This document shows positions 1,501 through 32,000 of a stretch of 32,000 nt of DNA, piece after piece. Positions within the stretch are counted from its first letter, which is position 1, and every line of letters begins with the position of its first letter. Both the position numbers and the translations under genes were made by a program. The stretch lies in NCBI RefSeq assembly GCF_008065095.1, contig NZ_CP042911.1, positions 2,880,001 to 2,912,000 on the forward strand, written 5' to 3'. Source of the stretch: Gemmata obscuriglobus (GTDB lineage Bacteria; Planctomycetota; Planctomycetia; Gemmatales; Gemmataceae). The notes under the pieces were generated by a model. That model worked only from the letters and a program-made list of their open reading frames with translations, did no database searches and was not told the origin of the DNA.

Positions 1501-2726
1501 ATGGCGGAACTCACGGACGACTTGCGCCGGACTATCCTGTTGGGCGCAACGCTCCTCACCGGTCATAAGCGGCGCCGGTTCCAAGCCGAGATGGCGAACA
1601 CGTACTGCGGCGGGTCCGCTCGTCGCGCCGAGACCACGTTCGGTTGGGGCCGGGAAGCGGTTCACACCGGGTTGAACGAACTCCGCTCGGGGATCCGGTG
1701 CCTGGAGGCGTTCGAGTCCCGCGGCCGCACGCCCACCGAGGATTTGTACCCCGCGGTGGAGGAGCACATCCGGCGGTTGGTCGATCCACACGCCCAGGCC
1801 GATCCCACGTTCCAGACCCCGTTCGCGTACACGCGGATCACCGCCAAGGCCGTCCGCGAGGCGCTGCTGGCCGTCCCCGAACTGGCCGGCCAGGTGCCGA
1901 CCCGCCAAACGGTCGGTGACATCCTCAACCGCCTCGGCTATAAGCTGCGCCGGGTGCTCAAGGCGCGGCCGCAAAAAAGGTCCCCCAGACCGACGCCATC
2001 TTCGCCCACGTCCAACACGCCCGCGCCGCGTCCGCAACCGCCCCGGACACGCGGAGGGTGTCCCTCGACACCAAGGCGAAGGTGGCGGTGGGCGCGTTCT
2101 CCCGCGGTGGTGCGGCCCGCGGGACGGAACCGGTGAAGGCCCTCGATCACGACATGGCCCCCGAGGCGGTGCTGGTCCCGTTCGGGGTGCTGGAATTGAA
2201 TCGCGGGGCCGAACCGATCCATCAGCCGTGGTTCCTGTTCGGGCACTCGCGGGAGACGAGCGACTTCTGGGCCGACGGGCTGGAACGGTGGTGGGCCGAG
2301 CGGAAGGTCGCGTACCCCGGCGTCACCCACCTGCACCTCGAGTTGGATAACGGCCCCGAAGTCAACAGCTCACGAACCCAATTCCTCAAGCGCCTGGTCG
2401 CGTTCGCGGACCGTCACCGGGTGACGGTGCAGTTGGTGTACCTACCCCCGTATCACAGCAAGTACAACCCGATCGAGCGCTGTTGGGGCATCTTGGAGCG
2501 GCACTGGAACGGGACCGTGTTCGCGTCCGTGGCGGATGTACTTCGGTGGGCCGCAACGATGACGTGGCGCGGGCTCCATCCGATCGTTCGGGAAACCACG
2601 ACGGCTTACGAGAAGGGCGTGCGGGTGGCTCGAGCCGCGTTCCGTACCGTCGCCGCACGGCTGATACGCTCAGCTACCCTGCCCAAGTGGAGCCTCACGA
2701 TCCAACCCCAAGAGCCGGGAGATTAA
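1501..2726 (+). CDS. ISAzo13-family DDE transposase (Rhodopirellula-type, PF07592-like). It is split into two frames and needs a -1 shift at 1973-1979 to give about 408 aa.
   Basis: ORFs 1501..2136 and 2058..2726. The second carries family hallmarks by eye: VSLDTKAKVAVGAF, LELDNGPEVNS, YLPPYHSKYNPIERCW and LPKWSLTIQP. Reading -1 at CAA AAA AGG gives PQKKVPQTDAIFAHV, the conserved linker of this family. Confidence 0.85.
1973..1979 (+). other. A6G tract at the exact junction of the two transposase frames. It is either a -1 recoding or transcriptional slippage site, or a 1-nt homopolymer loss.
   Basis: Zero frame is CAA AAA AGG. Lys-tRNA slipping from AAA(1975-1977) to AAA(1974-1976) puts AAG GTC CCC in frame. 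An A7 tract would give an uninterrupted gene. Confidence 0.4.
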
Positions 2727-3010
2727 ATTCCCGCCCTTGCCTAACTCCCCCAGGTGCTTGACCATCCCCTGATGAGCAGGAGAGAGTCATGGCCCATACT
2801 AACCCAGCTTTGGCCGGTGTCCATAGGCCAAGCGTGCCCACACGCAGGCCGGGTGGGCGTCACAGAAGTTGGTGGCATTTTTGTCGGTTTAATGGGATAA
2901 TGAGTGTGAGTCAGAAATCCCTGCCACCTCCGCGCCTTGTTCCGCAGTGAGAAAACCCAGTGGAACGACTACTGGGCCTCACTCGCTGCCTGATATCTAC
3001 CAACACTAAT

Positions 3011-3978
3011 AGACTCGTTGCGCAATAGGCGTGAGTTGAGGCGGCCCCCGTGCTCACCATTATGTGTGTGCATTAGCCGTACATGCGGTTGTGGAGCTCG
3101 GCCACATTCTTCATCATGACCGTGTGCCGGCGCGGCGGGTTGCGGTACCGGTCCGCCGCGATCCGCCAGATCTTCATCTTCCCGATCCCGTGCTCGGCCA
3201 CGATCCGCTCCCGTGCCAAGCGCCGATTGGATCGCTTCTCCTCGTCGCTCAGCGCACCGTTCCTCGGCTTCTTCCTGGGCACCCGCAGGTTGCTCCCCTG
3301 GTACCCGCTGTCACCCGACTTCGGTACTTCGGGGGCGATTCGCAGCCGCGACTGGTCGTACATCTTCTTGTCGTGAACGCGACCCTTGGCCGCCTTCGAC
3401 ACCGCCTTGATCCGCACCTTCTGCTTGTCCCCCGGCTCCTTTCGCTTGCGCGTCACCACCACCTGGTGCGTCACCGTGTGACGCTTCTTCTTCCCCGAGT
3501 AGCTGCGCCGCTGCCTCCGACTCGGGCGGTTGACCGGTTGCTCGGTCGCGTCCACGAACACCGCGACCAGATCGTCCGGATCGATCCGCACCTGGCGCTC
3601 GGGGATGCGGAACACCCCGGCCATGCACAGTCCCAGTTCCTGAACGCCACGAGAGACGGTTCCCTTATCGACCCCGAACAAGAACCCGACGAACTCCTGC
3701 GGGACGTACACCCGATAGTACAGCAACACCATCAGCAGCCGTTCGGTGAACAGCAGCTTCACCGGGCGCCCGGCCCCGGGCTTGCGTTGGCGCGGGCGGC
3801 CCGCGGCTCGTTCGGCCTTGCGGGCGAGCCACACGGGTTCGAGATCTGCCACCAACTGGTCGAACTCGGCGGCCGACAACCCCGTGAACATCCGGAACAA
3901 CAACGGCTTACGACACAACTTCTCGTAATTCGTCATGCCCTATGAATAGCCCACCGACCGCTATTGCGCAACGAGTCT
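3011..3978 (-). mobile_element. IS5/Harbinger-superfamily insertion sequence (968 bp)
   Basis: Perfect 18-bp terminal inverted repeats: AGACTCGTTGCGCAATAG at 3011-3028 and its reverse complement at 3961-3978. Flanking 3-bp direct repeat AAT (3008-3010 and 3979-3981). Single DDE transposase inside. Confidence 0.8.
3073..3936 (-). CDS. DDE transposase, HTH_Tnp_4 + DDE_Tnp_4 type (IS5/Harbinger-like), 287 aa
   Basis: ORF 3073..3936 (-). Candidate D-D-E residues in VFVDATEQP, SGDSGYQG and RIVAEHGIGKMK. N-terminal HTH (FTGLSAAEFDQLV...FGVDKGTVSR). It sits between the 18-bp IRs. Confidence 0.85.
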   Translation of the reverse strand: MTNYEKLCRKPLLFRMFTGLSAAEFDQLVADLEPVWLARKAERAAGRPRQRKPGAGRPVKLLFTERLLMVLLYYRVYVPQEFVGFLFGVDKGTVSRGVQELGLCMAGVFRIPERQVRIDPDDLVAVFVDATEQPVNRPSRRQRRSYSGKKKRHTVTHQVVVTRKRKEPGDKQKVRIKAVSKAAKGRVHDKKMYDQSRLRIAPEVPKSGDSGYQGSNLRVPRKKPRNGALSDEEKRSNRRLARERIVAEHGIGKMKIWRIAADRYRNPPRRHTVMMKNVAELHNRMYG

Positions 3979-5120
3979 AATGACGCTCACCCACGCAGGC
4001 CGCTTCGGTTTTTCGCGTCCGGGAACGCTAAACTGGCCCCGGGCATATGGACGTTCAGCCTTCCCGCGGGGCATAGTTGCCCCTTCGCTCGGCAATGCCA
4101 GAGCCGCGCCGACCGCCAGAGCGGGCGGATTAAGGACGGCCGGCACACTACCTTTCGCTGCTACGCCGCGATGGGCGAGGCCCGGCACTCTTCAGTGCGC
4201 CGGTCACGCTGGCACAACCTGGAGCAGCTGCGGGCGTGCCACTCCTCAGCCGAGATGACGCGGCTCATCCTCGACAGCTTGAGCGTATTCTGCACCGTGC
4301 TCCGCGTTCACGACTCCGGGGACTTCTTCTCGTTGGCCTACATGTCGGCGTGGGTCGCCGCCGCCCGCTCGCGGGCGAACACGACCTTCTACTTCTACAC
4401 GAAGTCGTTGCGTTACTGGCTCGCCCATCGCGATGACATCGGCGACGGGTACCCGAAGGTGTCGCTCCCGTTGACCTGCATCGCGGACCGCGAGTTCTTC
4501 TTCACGGTCTGCGCCCAAGGGCGGGTCCACACCAACCTCACGAACCTGAGTCGCGAGCTGCGGCCGTTCGTCCGGCACGCCGGCCGGCCGCTCTGGGCCG
4601 CGGACGTGGCAAACAGTCAGCCGTTGCTGATGGCACTGACCCTTCGGGCCGATGCAGCTATAGACCCTGGGCTAGCAGCCTACACCCAATGGCTAGCTGC
4701 CCCACACACACCACCACCAAACCCATCCCAAAGCCCTCTCCCTTATGTGGGAACCTATTCAGGTGGTAGTCAGAGTGACCTGGACCGGTTTCTGGAGGTG
4801 TGCGTCGAGGGTCAGCTGTACGAGCGGCTCATGGACCGGACCGGGTACGACCGGGCGACGGTCAAAGAGAAGTTCTTCGCGGTCGCGTACGGGAAGCCAG
4901 AGCAAGCGGCGACGACCCGGGTTGGTCAGGCGTTCGCGGCCGAGTTCCCGGCCGCTTGGGCGGCGGTCCGCGAGGTGAACGGGCGCGACAACGCAGCGGT
5001 CGCCCGCCGGATGCAGGCGGTGGAGAGCTACATCTGCGTGTTGCGGACGTGTGCGCGGCTGATGGCTGAGTTCCCGGACGCCCCAATGTACACGCTGCAC
5101 GACGGGTTGCCCTCGCAATG
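3979..5120 (+). pseudogene. IS-disrupted chimeric ORF: a Cys-rich Gp88-like (PF17338-like) N-module joined in frame to a family-A DNA polymerase palm/fingers remnant (motifs A, B, C)
   Basis: Part of ORF 3964..5421. Gp88-like signature: SGNAKLAPGIWTFSLPAGHSCPFARQC...FRCYAAMGE...VLRVHDSGDFFS...FYFYTKS. Pol A-like signatures: RVHTNL, AADVANSQPLLMAL (motif A, about 4600), RATVKEKFFAVAYG (motif B, 4852-4893) and MYTLHDGL (motif C, about 5098). Its 5' end is separated from upstream codons (GTG 2960) by the IS at 3011-3978. After about 5110 the composition changes and the similarity ends. Confidence 0.5.
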
Positions 5121-5216
5121 TTTGGGCTTCTTGTTTTCAGTAGTTGGTGGACCTTTGTCGGTCGAAGAGCACGTACTATCACAAAGAATTATACAGTTGA
5201 GCGATAGCGCGCGCAG

Positions 5217-5561
5217 ATGCGTGGGCAACAAACCAAGCTCGTCGAGGAACAGCGCGTTGAAGCCGAACGTCATCGCAAGGAGACGGAGCGGCAGCAAACC
5301 GAACTCGCACGATTGCGGGAGGAGCAGAACCGAACGGAAATCGCCGAGAATCGCAAGGCCGCGGTCCAGACCACTCATGCCGCCCTCGCCGCGATGTGCT
5401 CGAAACTCGCCGCAGCGGTAAAGTTTGATAAGGAACTGCGAACTGGCATTATTAAATACGACCAAGAGGTGATGATTGTATTCGCCGACAAAGACGTGAA
5501 TCCAGATGATGCGACCCAACCGGGTGTTAAGGAGTTCTACGAGAATCGTAAGCGATTACTG
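5217..5561 (+). pseudogene. Small coiled-coil protein gene interrupted by the IS66-family element
   Basis: ORF 5217..5579 (KLVEEQRVEAERHRKETERQQTELARLREEQNR...). The last 6 codons and the stop come from the IS end. After removing the IS and one TSD copy, the frame continues into 7146 onward (…ENRKRLL|DKASSQLGKMVDEQ…). Confidence 0.35.
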
Positions 5562-7137
5562 GTAAGCGTTCACGGGTGATGCGGCAGTGTATCAACAGTT
5601 GGCGAGTAGCGGATTCACAACGTTCTGTTGTTGAGCTTCAGCTGGAACGAGCGTCGGTGCCTTCGCGCCGGTCCGGTGTGCGGTGACGGCGTCGATGAGG
5701 AACGCCAAGACGTTGCGCTTCTGGCGGCGGCACGAGGCGATCACCGTGAGGATTCGTTCCACGAACCGGCTCCCGCGTTCGCTGTCGGTCCCGAAGCTGG
5801 TTTTGCGCCAGCACACGGCGTGACGCACCTCACGCTCGGCCGCGTTGTTGGTCGGTTCCACGCCGACGACACGCGCGAACGTCCACAACGACGCCTCGAC
5901 CGACAACAGTTCCGCGCAGGTCGTGGCGGTCTTGGCGCAGCCGCACGCCGCCCCGTTCCGCAGGTGCGTGCCGACCTGACGACGCAACGCGGGGATGTAG
6001 GTCGAGCGACATGTGGACCGCGCGAGGGTTCCGTCCCGGACCCGATACCAGTTCTCGAACAGGGCGTCCGAACACGCCAACAGAGCCGCGCCGATCGCCT
6101 GTCCGGAACCGCCCCGGTCGATCATCGCCTGGAAATCGCGTCGCAGGTGCGCCCAGCAGAGTTGACGCTTGTACTTGTCGAGGTGCGTGTACACCGGATA
6201 CCGGTCCGTCGTATGCACGGCCGTGGACCCGGCACGCAGGTCATCAAAGGCGGCCCGGCCCCGGGTCCGGCGGATCAGGAACGCCACCACGAACGTGGTC
6301 ACGGCGGCCCACAGCCAGGCCCGCTGACGCCCCTGCTTCCAACCGGTCTCGTCCACGTTGGCCGGGTGCCCGCGGGTGTACACCAGGGCCTGTTCGGCCA
6401 CCGGCTTCAGCGCCTCGGCGGTTCGGTGCTGGAGCTTGCACACCATAGCCGGGCTCAGGGGCAGGCCGAACAGATCGTCGAACAGTTGGCTCGTGCCCCG
6501 CTTGCCCAGACGGCACGAGCCGGTGAGAAGCGCGGCCACCGCCTGCGCCCGGGGGCCGTATCCGGTGCGCGCCTCCGACGGCACCGCGGGCACCGTGGTC
6601 GTGCCGCAGTGGGGGCACCGGAGCCGGTGGCACCGATACTCGGTCACGTGGGGTTTGATAACGGGCAACTCGTGGACCTGATGAATGGCCGGAGCCGGAT
6701 CGTCCCCGGCCAGCGACCGCGAGCAGTCCCGGCACACGGACGGCTTGAGGGTCCGGATCTCATCGGGTGGCAGGAGCGTGCGCTCGGCTTTGGGATGCCC
6801 CGGTTGCCCGCCCCGACGCTTCCCCGAAGGGGCCTTGGGCGGGGCCAGTTTCACCTGCGGAGGATCGGACGAGGGCGGCTTCGACGAGTTGGTGGAGCTC
6901 TGGTTGAGTCGGGCCTTGAGTTCGGCGACCTCGGCCACCAGAGCAGTGATCGTGGCCTCCAAGGCGCGAATATACGCCACCACCGCCGGTGGTAAGTTAT
7001 CGGGCAGTTCCGGCGGTTGAGGAACAGGCGTCATGACGTCTGCTCGATTACGGAACATGCCCGCTTGTGGCAACCGCGTATCCAAACGGGCTAAAATGAC
7101 GGGCAAAAGCGGGTGGCGCACCCCCATGAACGCTTAC
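5562..7137 (-). mobile_element. IS66-family insertion sequence, single-ORF type (1576 bp)
   Basis: The termini start with the IS66 hallmark GTAAGCG. GTAAGCGTTCA is identical at 5562-5572 and in the reverse complement of 7127-7137, and similarity continues for about 25 nt. The 8-bp flanks GATTACTG (5554-5561) and GATTACTT (7138-7145) match 7/8, consistent with the 8-bp TSD typical of IS66. Confidence 0.8.
5592..7034 (-). CDS. IS66-family transposase (TnpC-like), 480 aa
   Basis: ORF 5592..7127 (-). The likely start is the internal ATG at 7034 (MTPVPQPPELPDNLPP). N-terminal leucine-zipper-like helix, Cys cluster (CRDC...CPHCG), DDE core (NVDETGW...HTTDRYPVY...CWAHLRRDF). Confidence 0.9.
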   Translation of the reverse strand: MTPVPQPPELPDNLPPAVVAYIRALEATITALVAEVAELKARLNQSSTNSSKPPSSDPPQVKLAPPKAPSGKRRGGQPGHPKAERTLLPPDEIRTLKPSVCRDCSRSLAGDDPAPAIHQVHELPVIKPHVTEYRCHRLRCPHCGTTTVPAVPSEARTGYGPRAQAVAALLTGSCRLGKRGTSQLFDDLFGLPLSPAMVCKLQHRTAEALKPVAEQALVYTRGHPANVDETGWKQGRQRAWLWAAVTTFVVAFLIRRTRGRAAFDDLRAGSTAVHTTDRYPVYTHLDKYKRQLCWAHLRRDFQAMIDRGGSGQAIGAALLACSDALFENWYRVRDGTLARSTCRSTYIPALRRQVGTHLRNGAACGCAKTATTCAELLSVEASLWTFARVVGVEPTNNAAEREVRHAVCWRKTSFGTDSERGSRFVERILTVIASCRRQKRNVLAFLIDAVTAHRTGAKAPTLVPAEAQQQNVVNPLLANC

Positions 7138-7237
7138 GATTACTTGATAAGGCCAGCAGCCAGTTAGGAAAGATGGTCGATGAGCAAGGACCGGGCCGAC
7201 ATCCAGCGGCCGACCCGGACCCAGTTGAGGGACAAGG

Positions 7238-8361
7238 TCAACCGCCTGATGCCGGGGCTGAAGTGCTGATGCCCTCGCCGACCCGGCGTCCCGCATCGGC
7301 GACCGCCGCCAAGTTCGCGTGGATGTACTTGTCGGTGGTCTTGGTGTTGGTGTGCCCACCGAGCCGAGCGAGGTGGGGCGGCGAGATGGTCGGGTCGGCC
7401 CCGGCCGCGGTCATGAACGTGTGGCGGTTGGTATAGAGGACGAACTCCTCTCCCTGCTCATCCGCCTGAACCCCGGCGCGGACCCGGAGCCGCCGCATCC
7501 GCAGCCCGAGTGCGTTCTTCGTCCACGGCTGGCCGTCGGCGTTCAAGAAGACGTGCCCGGTCGTCCCGAACTGCTCCATCCGTCGCCGGAGCACGGTCTC
7601 GACCGCGGTCGGCATCCCGATGACCCGGGGCTCCGGTTTCTTGGCGGTCCGCCGGCCCTTGTGTTTGGTGAGCACCCACATCGGCTGCGCCCCCACACCA
7701 CCATCGCCCAGGTCAGGTTGTAGATGTCCTGGGGCCGCGCCGAGGTGTGCCGCATGGCGACCAGCACGTCCCGGAACGCGTCGTCCGTGCAGTGGTTCAG
7801 CAGGGCCTGGTACTCCTCATCCGTGGCCACCCGCTGCCGGCCCTCGCAGGGGAGCAGTTCAATGTTGGCGAACGGGTTCTTGCCGGCGGGCAGGCGGTCC
7901 GTGTCGATGGCCCAGTTGAAGGCCGCGCGGAGGGTGATGAGGGCGTGGTTAACGGTCTTCGGCTTGTACGGCTCGGGGGGCTTCTTGCCCCGGACGTAGG
8001 TCCTCTTCGTCATGGCCAGCTTGAAGTCGTTGGCGTCGGCTCGGGTCAGCGACCGGGCCGTCTTGCCGCCATACTCTTTGGCGAACTCGGTACACCACCG
8101 CTGGTAGTCGAGGAACGTGGCCTCGGTCTTCGTCGCCAGCACGTCCTCCAAGAACATCACGAACAACTCGGTGACCGTCATCTTGGTCGGGAGGCGTCCG
8201 CTCGACTGCTCGCGCTCGGTTTCCAGTCGTCCGAGTTCCAGCTTGAGCAGACGGCGGGCCTCGGTCATCCCGTCGGCGACCGGGCACAACTTCAGATACT
8301 GCCCGCCGGGCCGGCTGATGTACCAGCCCCGCTCCACGTACGGCTTCGGTTCGCGCGGCAT
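7238..8361 (-). pseudogene. Tyrosine recombinase (phage-type integrase) with one frameshift in a G5/C5 run
   Basis: The N-terminal part is in ORF 7543..8616 from ATG 8361 (MPREPKPYVERGWY...AMRHTSARPQDIYNLTWAMV). The C-terminal part is ORF 7238..7696 (MWVLTKHKGRRTAKKPEPRVI...LYTNRHTFMT...LGGHTNTKTTDKYIH, i.e. the R..H..R..Y boxes). The frames meet at the CCCCC run 7690-7694, and one extra base there restores a single ORF. Confidence 0.85.
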
Positions 8362-8516
8362 CTCGGTCCTCTCGTTTTGAAACCGGGGATAGTAACCCCG
8401 CGAGAGGTGGGTGCGGCAACCGGACGGGAAATTTTGTTTGGTCTGGTTCGGTTTATTGCGGTTCGGATTGCCCGCAGCGAAAGCCCGCAGGGGCAGATTC
8501 AAACCGAACCTGGAGT

Positions 8517-8554
8517 CAGAAAAGACTGCAACCCCTGGTGTTGCCAGGGGTTGC
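8517..8554 (-). terminator. Intrinsic-terminator-like hairpin just downstream of tRNA-Pro
   Basis: On the minus strand: an 11-bp perfect stem GCAACCCCTGG / CCAGGGGTTGC (8528-8554) with a 5-nt loop, followed by AGUCUUUUCUG. Confidence 0.55.
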
Positions 8555-8557
8555 GAG

Positions 8558-8632
8558 TCGGGCTGATAGGATTTGAACCTACGACCTCTTGGTCCCGAAC
8601 CAAGCGCTCTAGCCAAGCTGAGCTACAGCCCG
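8558..8632 (-). tRNA. tRNA-Pro (anticodon CGG), 75 nt, CCA not encoded
   Basis: Manual cloverleaf on the reverse strand: acceptor CGGGCTG/CAGCCCG, D stem GCTC/GAGC, anticodon stem CTTGG/CCAAG with loop TTCGGGA (CGG at 34-36), variable AGGTC, T arm GTAGG-TTCAAAT-CCTAT, discriminator A. Confidence 0.9.
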
Positions 8633-27812: not shown

Positions 27813-28384
27813 GCGCCGGGGCCGAGGCGGTGGTGATCGGCGCGTCCGCCGGCGCGGTGGACGCCCTCTCCGCGGTGCTGCCGGCGCTCCCGAAGGGGTA
27901 CCCGCTGCCGGTGATGGTGGTGGTTCACCTGCCGCCCGATAAAAAGAGCGTGATGGCGGAGCTGTTCCGCGGGAAGTGCGCGGTGGACGTGCGCGAGGCC
28001 GACGACAAGGAGCCGTTGACCGGCGGTACCGTGTATTTCGCGCCACCCGATTACCACCTGCTCGTGGAACCGGACCGCCGCCTCTCGCTCTCCAGCGAGG
28101 AGCAGGTCCATTTCTCGCGCCCGTCCGTGGACGTGCTGTTCGAGTCCGCCGCGGACGCGTTCGGCCCCGGGCTGGTCGGGGTCGTGCTCACGGGCGCGAA
28201 CGCGGACGGCGCCCGGGGGCTGCGGGCCGTGCTCGCGGCCGGCGGAACCGGGCTGGTCCAGACCCCGACAACCGCGGCGGCCGCGGCAATGCCCCTCGCC
28301 GCGCTGGCCGCCCACCCCGCCGCCCGCGCGCTCACGCTGGATCAAATCGCGGCTCACCTCCGCGAGCTCGGAGGTACGTCATGA
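27809..28384 (+). CDS. cheB: CheB-type methylesterase catalytic domain only (no receiver), 191 aa
   Basis: GTG 27809 overlaps the cheR stop (GTGA). Ser-His-Asp landmarks are VVIGASAGAVDAL, VVVHLPP and LTGANADGARGL. FSRPSVDVLFESAA is typical of CheB. Confidence 0.9.
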   Translation: MSAGAEAVVIGASAGAVDALSAVLPALPKGYPLPVMVVVHLPPDKKSVMAELFRGKCAVDVREADDKEPLTGGTVYFAPPDYHLLVEPDRRLSLSSEEQVHFSRPSVDVLFESAADAFGPGLVGVVLTGANADGARGLRAVLAAGGTGLVQTPTTAAAAAMPLAALAAHPAARALTLDQIAAHLRELGGTS

Positions 28385-29991
28385 GCACACCGACACCGGC
28401 ACCCGTTCACTTTCTGCTCGTGGACGACCTTGAGGAGAACCTGCTGGCGCTCGAGGGGCTGCTGCGCCGCGACGGGCTGACGCTCCTGAAGGCCCGGTCC
28501 GGCCCCGCGGCGCTGGAACTGCTCCTCGTCCACGAGGTGGCGCTCGCGTTCGTGGACGTGCGGATGCCCGTGATGGACGGGTTCGAGCTGGCCGAGTTGA
28601 TGCGCGGCACCGAGCGCACCCGGCGCGTGCCGATCATCTTCCTCACCGCCGGCACCCCGGACCAGCAGCGGCGGTTCCGCGGGTACGAGACCGGCGCGGT
28701 GGACTTCCTCACCAAGCCGCTCGAAGCGCACGTGGTGCGGAGCAAGGCCGACGTGTTCTTCGAGCTGTGGCGCGAGCGCCAGGAGGTGGCGCGGCAGCGG
28801 GACGAGCTGAAGCTCATCGCCGCCGAGAACGCCCGCCTCCTGGCCGAGACCCAGCGCACCGCCGAGGCGCTGCGCGAGGCCGACCGCCGCAAGGACGAGT
28901 TCCTGGCGACCCTGGCGCACGAGCTGCGCAACCCGCTGGCCCCCATGCGCAACGGGGTCCACCTGATGCGGGTGGGGCAGCCGGACGGGCCGGCGCGCGA
29001 GCGCACGCTCGCGATGATGGAGCGGCAGCTCGGGCAGATGGTCCACCTGGTGGACGACCTGCTGGACGTGGCCCGGTTCTCCAGCGGCAAGATCGTGCTC
29101 CGGAAGGAGCGGCTCGAACTGGCCCCGGTGCTCGGCACCGCGGTCGAAACGAGCCGCCCGCTGATCGAGGTCGGGCGCCACGAGCTGACTGTCGACGTGC
29201 CCGCCGAGCCGCTCCTGCTCGACGGCGACCGCACCCGGCTCACGCAGATCTTCGCGAACCTGCTGAACAACGCCGCGAAGTACACCCCCAAGGGCGGGCG
29301 GATCACCCTCTCGGCGGCCCGCGAGGGGGAGAAAGCGGTGGTGCGCGTGGGCGACAACGGGATCGGCATCTCGGCCGAGATGCTGCCCCAGGTGTTCGAC
29401 CTGTTCACCCAGGTCGGCAGCGCGGTGGACCGCGCCCAGGGCGGGCTGGGGATCGGGCTGACGCTGGTGAAGCGGCTGGTCGCGTTGCACGGCGGGGAGA
29501 TCGCCGCGCACAGCGCCGGGGAGGGGAAGGGGAGCGAGTTCGTCGTGCGCCTGCCGCTCGTGAACCGCCCCGCCGCGGCCGAACCGGCGGCTCCGGTTGC
29601 GGCGCCCCCCGAGCCGCGGCTGAAGCGCGGCGCGCCGGTGCTGATCGTGGACGACAACCTGGACGCGGCCGAGTCGCTGGCCGAGCTGCTCGAAATGAAG
29701 GGGCACACGGTGCGCACCGCCCGCGACGGGGCGGAGGCGATGCGGGTGCTGGGTACGTTCCGCCCGCGGCTGGTGCTGCTCGACCTGGGCCTGCCCGGCA
29801 TGAGCGGGTACGAACTGGCCGAACGGCTCCGGGACGATCCGGCCCTGAGCGGGATGGCTCTCGCCGCGCTCACCGGATGGGGCAAGGACGAGGACCGACG
29901 CCGCACGAAAGAGGCCGGGTTCGATTACCACTTCGTGAAGCCCGCCGACCTGAGCCAGGTCGATGCCGTACTCGCCGGGTTGGGGCAGTAG
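28381..29991 (+). CDS. Hybrid sensor histidine kinase: REC - coiled coil - HisKA - HATPase_c - REC, 536 aa, with no TM or recognisable sensor domain
   Basis: ATG 28381 overlaps the cheB stop (ATGA). REC1: LLVDDLEEN...FVDVRMPVMDG...FLTKP. H box ATLAHELRNPLAP, N box NLLNNAAKYTP, G boxes VGDNGIGI and GGLGIGL. REC2: LIVDDNLD...LLDLGLPGMSG...HFVKP. Confidence 0.92.
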   Translation: MSTPTPAPVHFLLVDDLEENLLALEGLLRRDGLTLLKARSGPAALELLLVHEVALAFVDVRMPVMDGFELAELMRGTERTRRVPIIFLTAGTPDQQRRFRGYETGAVDFLTKPLEAHVVRSKADVFFELWRERQEVARQRDELKLIAAENARLLAETQRTAEALREADRRKDEFLATLAHELRNPLAPMRNGVHLMRVGQPDGPARERTLAMMERQLGQMVHLVDDLLDVARFSSGKIVLRKERLELAPVLGTAVETSRPLIEVGRHELTVDVPAEPLLLDGDRTRLTQIFANLLNNAAKYTPKGGRITLSAAREGEKAVVRVGDNGIGISAEMLPQVFDLFTQVGSAVDRAQGGLGIGLTLVKRLVALHGGEIAAHSAGEGKGSEFVVRLPLVNRPAAAEPAAPVAAPPEPRLKRGAPVLIVDDNLDAAESLAELLEMKGHTVRTARDGAEAMRVLGTFRPRLVLLDLGLPGMSGYELAERLRDDPALSGMALAALTGWGKDEDRRRTKEAGFDYHFVKPADLSQVDAVLAGLGQ

Positions 29992-30356
29992 CGCCCGTGC
30001 GGGGACCGGCCCCTTCGTTTGTTGCGTTGCGATTGGCATCGGGTGCTTCCCTGGTGGTGCTTCCGGTCGTTCGTTTCGTCTCGTTTCGCTGCTTGCGGGC
30101 CGCGAAACTTCCACCGGCTTGTGCCCGAGCGGGTACCGCTCGGTTGGATCGTTTCGGCCGCAAGTGACTTCCTGAAAACCTGTTGCGACGCATCTCTTGG
30201 CCGCCGTGGGAACCATCCTACTCAACCTTTGACGGCTCGGAGCGCGGGTTTTAGGTGCGATTCGGTGGTAGCGACGCACCAGCGTACTGCCAGCTCATGA
30301 CCATTCGAACACCAGCGAACGTCCAGTCGGTGACCCATCGGCAGCGATCGCGTCGG

Positions 30357-30548
30357 CACTGTAACCCCCGAGTGGCGTCGCGACGCGAGTGTAACGGGGG
30401 TTACAGTGGTGTCGCGACGCGAGTGTAACGGGGGTTACAGTGGTGTCGCGTCGCGAGTGTAACGGAGGTTACAGTGGCGTCGCGACGCGAGTGTAACGGG
30501 GGGTACAGTGATGTCGCGAGTGTAACCCCCGTTACAGTGCCGAGTGAA
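30357..30548. repeat. Tandem array of a 34-bp unit (4 full copies plus 1 truncated/variant copy), each with two nested palindromes
   Basis: Units at 30375-30408, 30409-30442, 30443-30476 and 30477-30510, consensus GYGTCGCGACGCGAGTGTAACGGGGGTTACAGTG, with 1-2 substitutions between copies. A 29-nt variant lies at 30511-30539. Each unit contains TCGCG-A-CGCGA and TGTAAC-N4-GTTACA. An inverted half-unit CACTGTAACCCCC (30357-30369) caps the left side. Confidence 0.9.
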
Positions 30549-30974
30549 CTTGGGGACAGCCCCAGGGCCGGCGTCGGCAAAACGTGTGGGTGAAGTCACA
30601 ACCCCGTACCCGTGGTACGCTGCATAACCACACACAGCGCTGTTAGCAGCGGTCACGTTGTGGCTCCGTTCCGGTGCTTCGGACGGCTATTCCCGGTTGC
30701 GTGTCTGCGCAACGCCCCCCTCTACGGCAGATGGCACCGGCCTTCGGTCCGGTGGGTGCGTCTGCTTCTCATACATGAACACGCCTGCGGTGTCGCTTGT
30801 GTTGACGGGCCGCGACCGTAGAGGTCGCCAAGGCACGCGCCCGAACGGGAAATGACAGTGGGGGACACGGCTCGTTAAGAAATCAGACGTGTTTTCTGTG
30901 TATATGTTTTATAGTTTGCGCCGGTTGAGCTAGAAGGGTGCTTGGCCTGTGAAGGTGCCCCGGCCCCGAAGACG

Positions 30975-31426
30975 ACCTACCCCCGTCCCCATCCCTAAAG
31001 GTAGGGGGTGGCGCCGGGAGGGGTGGTCCCGATGCGAGCGGAAAGGCAACCTACCCCCCGGCCCCCTCCCTAAAGGGAGGGGGTGGCGCCGGGAGGGGTG
31101 GTCCCGGCGCGATATGCGCACGCGGGGCGAAGACCCACCCCCTGCCCCTCCCTGAAGGGAGGGGAGCAAGGCACGGGCGCATCGATTCCGCCTCGGGTGC
31201 GCGGTGGTTTTTGCTCCCCCTCCCTTCCCGACGGCCCACGGAAGCTCTGCTGACCGGGCCGGCGAGCACGGCGAGGGGGCGGGGGGTAGGTTGCCTTTGC
31301 TCTCCTCCCTTCAGGGAGGGGCCGGGGGTGGGTCTTCGCTCCGCGTGCGCATATCGCGCCGGGACCACCCCTCCCGGCGCCACCCCTTCCCTTCAGGGAG
31401 GGGGCAGGGGGGTAGGTTGCCTTTCG
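30975..31426. repeat. Composite G/C-rich foldback: inverted arms of about 135 bp (31038-31173 and 31281-31426) separated by about 107 bp, plus a tandem partial copy (30975-31040). It is built from CCCTCCC-loop-GGGAGGG hairpins.
   Basis: The reverse complement of 31281-31426 aligns with 31038-31173 with about 6 substitutions and 2 one-base indels, by eye. Six hairpins of type CCCCCTCCCT-AAA/GAA-GGGAGGGGG. The 15-mer GGCAACCTACCCCCC or its complement occurs at 31045-31059, 31283-31297 and 31407-31421. Confidence 0.85.
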
Positions 31427-31432
31427 CCCCCT

Positions 31433-31738
31433 GGTCACCCCCGGTCACCCTCTGGTCACCCCGGGTGACCGCCGTAACTCCTTGCGGCGCAAGGCTTGGT
31501 CACCCGTGGTCACCCCGGTCACCCCCTCTCTACCCCCCGTAACACTCCGCCGCCCCCCCCTGGCGCGTGTGTAACGAGCGCCGGACGACGTTACACCGGA
31601 GAACGTTACACCCGCGAGAAGATGTTCGACAAATAAAAAAGAAAAGGGGTGACCAGGGTGACCAGGGGTGACCGCGCCTTGTGCCGCAAGGACTTACGGC
31701 GGTCACCCCCCCGGCCCACCGGGTGACCGGGGGTGACC
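31433..31738. repeat. Iteron-like cluster: 13 copies of GGT(C/G)ACC in two 91-bp inverted arms (31433-31523 and 31648-31738) flanking a 124-bp core with an A-rich tract
   Basis: Motif starts: 31433, 31443, 31454, 31464, 31498, 31508, 31517, 31648, 31657, 31667, 31701, 31722 and 31732, with spacings of 9-11 bp within sub-clusters. The arms match 77/91 as reverse complements. The core carries AAATAAAAAAGAAAAG (31631-31646) and four GTGTAAC/GTTACAC heptamers. Confidence 0.9.
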
Positions 31739-31838
31739 ACCGGAGCGCGGGGCCGGGCGCGCTGCCCCGGTGCCACGTCTCCCGCTCCCGGGCAGACGCG
31801 GCTCGTCAAGACAGCGGCACCGCGGGTGGGTTCGTGTA

Positions 31839-32000
31839 TTACGGCGTCTTCAACCAGGCGGCCGTGAACGTGTCGGGCGGGAAGGTGGGGTTCAACTCGA
31901 TGTCGCGGAAGTAGTAGGTACCGATCGTCACTTTCGTGCCGCCCGGTGCGTCGCGGAGCGTCTCGGTCGCGACCTGGAGCCACCGCTCGCGGTCGATGAA
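31839..32000 (-). CDS. 3' end of a hypothetical protein gene entering from the right edge (...FIDRERWLQVATETLRDAPGGTKVTIGTYYFRDIELNPTFPPDTFTAAWLKTP*)
   Basis: The reverse strand is open in frame from 32000 down to stop TAA (complement of 31839-31841). Third positions are G/C rich. It is not in the ORF track because its start lies outside the window. Confidence 0.55.
   Translation of the reverse strand, partial: FIDRERWLQVATETLRDAPGGTKVTIGTYYFRDIELNPTFPPDTFTAAWLKTP

Follow-up and report, generated by a model that had tools for sequence, protein, structure and literature searches.

The replication origins of Staphylococcus aureus pathogenicity islands (SaPIs) comprise 6-12 iterons directly downstream of the rep gene, with an AT-rich region near the centre; at least two iterons stand on each side, in opposite directions, and are recognised by the winged-helix C-terminal domain of Rep, of which two hexamers probably load, one per side (PMC9371898). 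In Gram-negative phage-inducible chromosomal islands (PICIs), the origin is located downstream of pri (PMC10111431). Here, we analyse an iteron array found in a 32-kb stretch of the Gemmata obscuriglobus genome (the window; all coordinates are positions in it), which resembles the pri-rep-ori modules of SaPI1, SaPIbov1 and SaPI5 in its opposed short iterons around an A/T-rich centre. Unlike the SaPI/PICI origins, it has neither rep nor pri in cis, its arms are two-tiered with an inner palindrome in each, and its host is a planctomycete with 67% GC, where the 'AT-rich' centre is a 16-nt A-run in a 59% GC core; the primase part of the proteins related to the array also differs, being DUF3854/Toprim. 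Because the same iteron and the same layout adjoin primase-helicase genes in related Gemmataceae, the reading we favour is a PriRep/P4-class iteron array of the origin type, its initiator in cis having been lost or never present, and we put the probability of this reading at roughly 0.6.

The alpha protein of satellite phage P4, a multifunctional primase-helicase, binds octamer iterons (TGTTCACC) in ori and crr. P4 needs two separated iteron regions, and their layout is not a simple mirror pair, unlike that of the window array. Plasmid origins (oriV) of the RPA/RepA type carry direct tandem iterons of ~17-22 bp beside the rep gene; both they and the window array have repeated initiator-type sites near DNA of lower GC, but the sites of the latter are 7-9 bp long and arranged in inverted sets. 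RPA/RepA-type initiators are reported for Planctomycetes plasmids, and G. obscuriglobus reportedly carries two chromosomal RPA homologues (bioRxiv 10.1101/2024.01.22.576637); the supplements of that preprint contain no iteron sequences.

Architecture of the array

The array consists of two mirror arms around a core (Table 1). An initial reading made from the DNA letters alone (the sequence-only reading) had listed 13 GGT(C/G)ACC heptamers (GGTSACC) at 31433-31738, and our exact pattern search returns the same 13. Seven more occur in the remaining 31.7 kb, the chance expectation for the whole window being 7.18, and none of 100 shuffles of the window reached the total of 20. Within sub-clusters, the sites follow one another at 9-11 bp, as first described and here recomputed. 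Their orientations across the array give the string +++-+++---+--, with six GGTCACC and one GGTGACC in the left arm and five GGTGACC and one GGTCACC in the right, in agreement with the mirror orientation originally proposed. A 14th, degenerate site (GGCCCACC, 31713-31720) is the mirror of the site at 31454. Each arm has two tiers: going inwards, three direct sites are followed by an inverted one, then by a 15-nt palindrome of the form CCTTGC-N3-GCAAGG and lastly by three further direct sites; the palindrome had been pointed out as a hairpin in each arm, and both copies are present. A repeat finder delimits arms of 100 nt each that are 84% complementary and separated by 108 nt, which is consistent with the earlier alignment of 77 out of 91 positions.

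The core has a GC content of 0.59, compared with 0.69 in the surrounding 600 bp, and contains three exact heptamers, GTGTAAC at 31569 (plus strand) and GTTACAC at 31590 and 31605 (minus strand). Four had been counted, but the fourth (GTAACAC, ~31541) is a different word. Directly adjoining the right inner iterons, at 31631-31646, stands the A-rich run AAATAAAAAAGAAAAG. It had been described as the most A/T-rich run in the window and does belong at the top, although it shares that rank with 30890-30920, whether 16-, 20- or 30-mers are compared. As stated from the outset, there is no DnaA-box consensus: TTATCCACA is absent from 31000-31840 even with up to two mismatches allowed, and in the whole window it occurs at chance level. 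We found no promoter-like or terminator-like site in the array, and an Rfam scan of the spacer around it returned chance-level microRNA and small RNA matches only.

An origin of the PriRep type can be recognised by at least six short (5-9 bp) iterons, by opposed sets with at least two iterons on each side, by an A/T-rich centre and by a location directly downstream of the rep open reading frame (ORF). The array offers 13 exact sites and one degenerate site, opposes six C-type sites on the left to five G-type sites on the right, and has a core of lowered GC with an A-run; its left neighbour is a gene-free repeat region instead of a rep ORF.

The same iteron beside primase-helicase genes

In a Fimbriiglobus metagenome-assembled genome (MAG) contig of the Gemmataceae (L093), we found a 918-aa ORF with DUF3854/Toprim and DUF5906 (SF3-type helicase) domains, at the end of which stand five GGTCACC(CC) repeats (GGTCACCCC), then a 116-bp core with the run GAAGAAGAGATAC, and then the inverted GGGTGACCAGGGGGACCGGGGTGACC. 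A second Fimbriiglobus MAG contig (L161), with a Rep 88% identical, has GGTCACCCCGGTCACCC, a 116-bp core and the 17-mer GGGTGACCAGGGTGACC. Both this 17-mer and GGTCACCCC are common to the window array, L093 and L161, and the three agree in the heptamer, in its CC extension and in the polarity of the sets (C-type left, G-type right). In each, an A/purine-rich run abuts the right-hand set, the core measuring 124 bp in the window array and 116 bp in the other two.

L093 was first met through a DNA pattern scan for three phased iterons, among the matches listed, whereas the other relatives were met through their proteins; the three-iteron pattern also matches period-9 coding repeats (GDR- or PVT-type) in abundance. 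One of these protein-retrieved loci (L183, Rep 39% identical) also uses GGTCACC, and its 143-bp core contains an A-run and a second repeat motif, just as the window core has its GTGTAAC repeats. The layout is the same in L159 and L162 (69-71% identity), with GGTCCCCC/GGGGGACC (GGTCCCC/GGGGACC) as iterons, and in L160 (36% identity), with TGTTCCAC/GTGGAACA (TGTTCCA/TGGAACA) and an integrase gene downstream. The iteron thus changes with the protein while the layout stays constant, which is how an initiator and its origin would be expected to behave. The resemblance has its bounds, since the uncharacterised origins of L093, L161 and L183 have 4-7 sites located where rep ends (3'), with HTH_17 encoded upstream of them and a small conserved gene on the downstream side, whereas the window array has 13-14 sites, long homologous arms and none of these genes; core lengths are 116-143 bp in the three loci versus 124 bp in the array.

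An alignment of ten family members was used to retrieve 80 metagenome loci, in which we scored a strict layout: one 7-mer present two or more times forward at 8-12-bp spacing and two or more times in reverse, the forward and reverse groups being separated by 40-300 bp. This layout was present in 25 of the 68 segments just 3' of the helicase gene, as against 2 of 529 control segments from the same loci, and a scan of the 32-kb window scored the array reported here and nothing else. The cleanly separated cores of the family measure 72-143 bp, a range that includes the 124 bp of the array. The family profile matches PDB entries 7OLA and 7OM0 (E = 7.6e-25), of which 7OLA is PriRep5 of SaPI5, and near its C-terminus an RFX-type winged helix (E = 5e-6). 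Its helicase part is related, by tblastn, to plasmid and phage genes annotated 'phage/plasmid primase, P4 family'. In two actinobacterial viral contigs (L004 and L017), TTCGGTCACC clusters adjoin Prim-Pol/D5_N/DUF5906 genes, whose proteins are homologous to the planctomycete ones via the C-terminal region.

The closest architectural twin of the window array lies on a complete 16.3-kb plasmid of Streptomyces virginiae (NZ_CP108186.1), where a two-tier mirror array of TGTTCAGGG comes after a P4-family primase gene. Its left arm consists, in order, of four TGTTCAGGG iterons, one inverted iteron and another two; the right arm is the mirror image, and the AT-rich core between the arms measures 66 bp. 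The two arrays share an outer direct cluster ending in an inverted iteron, a spacer and an inner cluster; they differ in the iteron, in the length of the core and in the setting, which in Streptomyces is an autonomous plasmid with adjoining Prim-Pol, primase-helicase and integrase genes. The plasmid array (L307 3757-4061) is unannotated, comes immediately after the primase gene and a terminator hairpin, and is probably the origin of the plasmid.

Across the DUF3854-DUF5906 family, the iteron words differ by clade (GGTCACC, GGGGACC, TGGAACA, TGATCCA, CGTGCCA, CGCGGTA, CACGCCA and others; loci L093, L161, L159, L162, L160, L170, L199, L204, L207, L233, L239 and others), with position and mirror layout constant, and these clade-specific iterons constitute a data set for the recognition code of the winged-helix domain. 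Separately, L160 encodes at 2365-5766 (minus strand) a Cas12b/C2c1-like protein of 1133 aa, ~2 kb upstream of its PriRep primase-helicase gene, and this may be a mobile element with a type V effector. Apparently non-coding, direct-only GGTGACC/GGTCACC arrays with an 11-bp period occur in a Longimicrobiales MAG (L086 5031-5130) and in two Acidovorax genomes (L062 1195-1237, L063 518-559).

Conservation within Gemmata

Absence from close relatives had been named among the grounds for abandoning the sequence-only reading; the spacer with the array is present in both G. algarum JC717 and G. algarum JC673, between the same two genes. Conservation is uneven but in part strong. Identity to G. obscuriglobus in the spacer left of the repeats (segments A and B) is 94% in JC717 and 92-93% in JC673; in the left arm it is 100/100 and 96/100, in the core 91% and 98%, in the right arm 87/100 and 99/100, and in the 100 bp from the array to the DUF1571 stop codon 85% and 86%, respectively. 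In JC673, the array is thus 96-99% identical and the flanking spacers 86-93%. The three core GTGTAAC/GTTACAC heptamers are kept in all three Gemmata genomes.

From the left arm of JC673 only the first iteron is gone, beside a 62-bp deletion, while in the right arm of JC717 three sites are mutated with no compensating change on the left. As JC717 and JC673, which belong to one species, are 99% identical in spacer A, the right half of JC717 looks, from these alignments, like a replacement tract and not like the product of gradual decay. Since sites have been lost in G. algarum, not every site is under selection. The array appears to be partly under constraint or recently homogenised, its individual sites lacking full protection, and conservation above that of the flanks is compatible with selection and with gene conversion alike. 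No empty site, and hence no insertion boundary, could be defined in other Gemmata (L156, L157 and L158), whose gene order is not conserved downstream of the kinase gene.

A probable origin without an initiator in cis

Several observations weigh against the origin reading. The neighbours of the array are ordinary chromosomal genes (hybrid histidine kinase, DUF1571, BBP7, rpe). Searches by tblastn and with the family hidden Markov model found no primase-helicase gene or relic in the 32-kb window or in the orthologous locus of G. algarum, of which 21.6 kb were covered, and among the minority of family-search hits that carry names, none is attributable to G. obscuriglobus. The match to L093, taken alone, is biased, having been found by the iteron pattern itself, and what the array shares in sequence with the Fimbriiglobus origins goes no further than the iterons. 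Finally, against the 13 GGTSACC sites of G. obscuriglobus, JC717 has 10 and JC673 has 11, and the right half of the JC717 array is 13% diverged without matching change in the left.

The sequence-only reading had pointed to the DNA right of the array as the place for Rep, Par or transposase genes, but none adjoins the array, either within the window or rightward in G. algarum, where ~10 kb contain no rep gene or relic. A tblastx comparison of the spacer with PriRep loci gave compositional noise only. Likewise, none of the companions expected of an integrative element (HTH_17, pri-rep, the small conserved gene, an integrase) occurs within 23 kb of the array: the sole integrase in the window is the split one at 7238-8616, 23 kb to the left beside tRNA-Pro and among insertion sequence (IS) elements, with ordinary chromosomal genes in between. 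Because neither the window nor the ~10 kb to the right in G. algarum holds a rep gene or relic, we regard the array as an orphan. The original proposal of a plasmid or phage origin is favoured, and narrowed to initiators of the P4-family/SaPI type, for an array that has no adjoining rep gene and sits in an ordinary chromosomal spacer.

If the PriRep model applies, the winged-helix C-terminal domain of a hexameric Rep would bind short iterons phased by about one helical turn; opposed iteron sets would flank the A/T-rich centre, taking one hexamer per side, and the centre would be melted. GGTCACC(CC) would be the iteron here, with seven sites per arm (one of them degenerate), and the 124-bp core with its A-rich run would act as the melting region. 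Firing would occur only with a cognate Rep supplied in trans, from an integrative element or a satellite; alternatively, the array would be the surviving origin of an element whose genes were lost. In evolutionary terms, the array may be what is left of an element that integrated ahead of the split of G. obscuriglobus and G. algarum, or may still be Rep-responsive in trans.

Alternative explanations

A related scenario, to which we give a small chance, is that the array has been retained as a gene-less origin used in trans by the host or by a resident element. Two forms are possible: a chromosomal sink titrating the Rep of incoming PriRep-type satellites or plasmids, that is, an iteron-based immunity, or a helper-dependent origin that amplifies the chromosomal region in situ upon induction of an element. 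Were such a use real, the conservation of the array above its flanks across two Gemmata species would reflect selection and not recent gene conversion.

The long inverted arms (100 nt, 84% complementary), the TG and CA with which the array begins and ends, and the abundance of IS elements in the window could also suggest a non-autonomous transposon resembling a miniature inverted-repeat transposable element (MITE), whose arms would be terminal inverted repeats with multiple transposase sites, as in Tn7 or Mu, and whose internal genes were deleted; the right half of JC717, which has the look of an import from some diverged copy, would be in line with a multi-copy family. There is, however, no target-site duplication: the flanks read ...GCCCCC and CCGGAG..., giving CCCCC on one side and CCGGA on the other, and an 11-bp direct repeat (CGGAGCGCGGG at 30238 and 31741) is at chance level (E ~0.4, an estimate) and not conserved in JC717. 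Nor did we find a second copy. The Gemmata DNA covered amounts to ~90 kb, namely the remaining 31.7 kb of the window, ~30 kb of G. algarum away from the orthologous locus and 27 kb from two further Gemmata species. A pattern specific to the arms (three sites plus CCTTG) had 0 matches across the complete sets of IMG/VR viral contigs and JGI metagenome contigs. With 30200-32000 as blastn query, neither PLSDB plasmids nor GenBank phages gave a match, and viral scans for the 17-mer GGGTGACCAGGGTGACC and for TGTAAC-N4-GTTACA pairs returned unrelated matches only. At the protein level, a six-frame composite of the array had no match among 5.8 billion proteins, and one array frame compared with 1.84 billion representatives gave a single weak low-complexity match (P0179, E = 3.4e-07, 12 short stretches) that is not an array copy; as no genes are called in the array, these outcomes carry little information. 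Iterons bound by winged-helix Rep proteins are typically 7-9 bp long with a phase of 9-11 bp, whereas the end sites of transposases are ~20 bp. The element also occupies the same position in two species. The multi-site transposon ends that had been suggested thus go unsupported in the DNA examined, and a MITE-like origin of the array is improbable.

Phased repeats on one helical face would suit any cooperative DNA binder, and the array might accordingly act as a centromere of the plasmid type (parC/sopC-like) or as the target of a nucleoid or regulatory protein of the host that recognises GGTCACC; conservation above the flanks would be in keeping with this. A further point in its favour is a tandem array of palindrome-bearing 34-bp units 1.1 kb away, which shares the half-site of the core and itself looks like an operator or a centromere-type array for a dimeric binder. 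The whole window contains ten GTGTAAC words where 1.3 would be expected, and eight of them fall within the 1.85-kb spacer: five belong to the 34-bp array and three to the core between the iteron arms. Because these words concentrate in both, the two probably bind one common protein. On the other side, no parM/parR, parA/parB or further partner gene was found nearby, the array lies downstream of both neighbouring genes and so cannot be their operator, and the same iteron and layout were found solely beside primase-helicase genes. The likeness to the parC centromere of R1 proposed at the start does not hold, as parC has direct repeats around a promoter together with parMR, whereas the window array opposes inverted sets across an A-rich core and has no promoter-like site and no par genes; we rejected a type II centromere of this kind. 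Overall, a role for another DNA binder is doubtful.

A structural element acting through a long hairpin, whether as a cruciform, a stem-loop RNA or a bidirectional terminator, would be in place between convergent genes, 100 bp past the DUF1571 stop codon, and the arms could pair over 100 nt at 84%. Pairing is not maintained in JC717, however: the right arm there carries 13 substitutions, the left arm has none, and the matches fall from 84 to 77; in addition, the array has no Rfam match and no terminator-like site, and the periodicity of the heptamers would be left unexplained. We consider a hairpin-based function very unlikely. Still less plausible is the chromosomal oriC of Gemmata, for although the spacer is rich in repeats and includes two runs that rank among the window's most A/T-rich, the array lacks a cluster of DnaA boxes even at two mismatches, is flanked by convergent genes unrelated to replication, shares its iteron with origins of mobile elements and shows no informative skew switch in the 32-kb composition profile, where a GC-skew inflection had been sought.

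Genomic setting and other features of the window

The origin-type array sits in a spacer of 1.85 kb (29992-31839) without a supported gene, between two convergent chromosomal genes. The left side of the spacer is the end of a cheR-cheB-kinase operon and the right side the end of the convergent DUF1571 gene, whose stop codon is 100 bp from the array. Left of the array, the spacer contains two further repeats (Table 1). The 34-bp unit of the tandem array, which may be associated with the iteron array, is present five times in G. obscuriglobus and seven times in both G. algarum strains. The large inverted repeat, by analogy with PriRep loci, stands where a rep gene would be; its loop (31113-31353) is replaced by unrelated sequence in JC717, its right arm is deleted in JC673, and the 2008 draft contig ABGO01000261 terminates within it. 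Between the two repeats lies an A/T-rich segment that ties for the lowest GC of the window and is 97-98% identical across the three Gemmata genomes; it has no conserved reading frame and no Rfam match, and may be a promoter or a small RNA.

At the far left of the window, a decayed integrative island adjoins a tRNA-Pro gene and contains split as well as intact mobile-element genes (Table 1). Collinearity with G. algarum (L155, L306) ends left of ~25855, where G. algarum has ispE and spoVG; the break is either a rearrangement or an island boundary.

Table 1. Positions of the iteron array, its parts and other features in the 32-kb window
Feature	Position	Strand	Details
Iteron array	31432-31739		308 bp; two mirror arms around a core
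Left arm	31432-31531	+	Outer cluster of three GGTCACC (31433, 31443, 31454); inverted GGTGACC (31464)
Left arm, further inward		+	Palindrome CCTTGCGGCGCAAGG (31480-31494); inner cluster of three GGTCACC (31498, 31508, 31517)
Core between arms	31532-31639		124 bp measured from innermost iteron to innermost iteron (31524-31647)
Right arm, core outwards	31640-31739	-	Three GGTGACC (31648, 31657, 31667); palindrome CCTTGTGCCGCAAGG (31677-31691)
Right arm, further out		-	Inverted GGTCACC (31701); degenerate GGCCCACC (31713-31720); two GGTGACC (31722, 31732)
Hybrid histidine kinase	28381-29991		Identical to G. obscuriglobus WP_010047540, AWM39231 and QEG27716
Tandem array	30371-30540	+	Five 34-bp units, each with a TGTAAC-GGGG-GTTACA palindrome and a TCGCGA-rich segment
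A/T-rich segment	30851-30950
Large inverted repeat	30969-31425		129-nt arms, 95% complementary; 75-82-nt units with CCCTCCCTNNAGGGAGGG hairpins
Decayed integrative island	1501-8632		Next to tRNA-Pro
tRNA-Pro	8557-8632	-
Tyrosine integrase	7238-7696, 7543-8616		Split in two frames
IS66 transposase	5592-7127
GP88 / phrog_1392 protein	3964-5421
IS5-like transposase	3073-3936
ISAzo13-like transposase	1501-2726		Split

Implications

To our knowledge, very little is known about the replication modules that mobile elements carry in Planctomycetes. A survey of the phylum reports only RPA-type plasmid initiators (bioRxiv 10.1101/2024.01.22.576637). The array probably belongs to a known class of origin, in a phylum where that class has not previously been described. 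Together with its relatives, it indicates that Gemmataceae also host SaPI/P4-like primase-helicase elements, with origins at the 3' end of rep and iterons that vary with the protein, and that an origin of the PriRep type persists in the G. obscuriglobus chromosome without its initiator. Should it be a relic only, it would represent the ordinary footprint of a lost element. We know of no replicating vectors for Gemmata to date; if the array is active with Rep in trans, the 308-bp fragment combined with a Fimbriiglobus-type rep would be a candidate minimal replicon.

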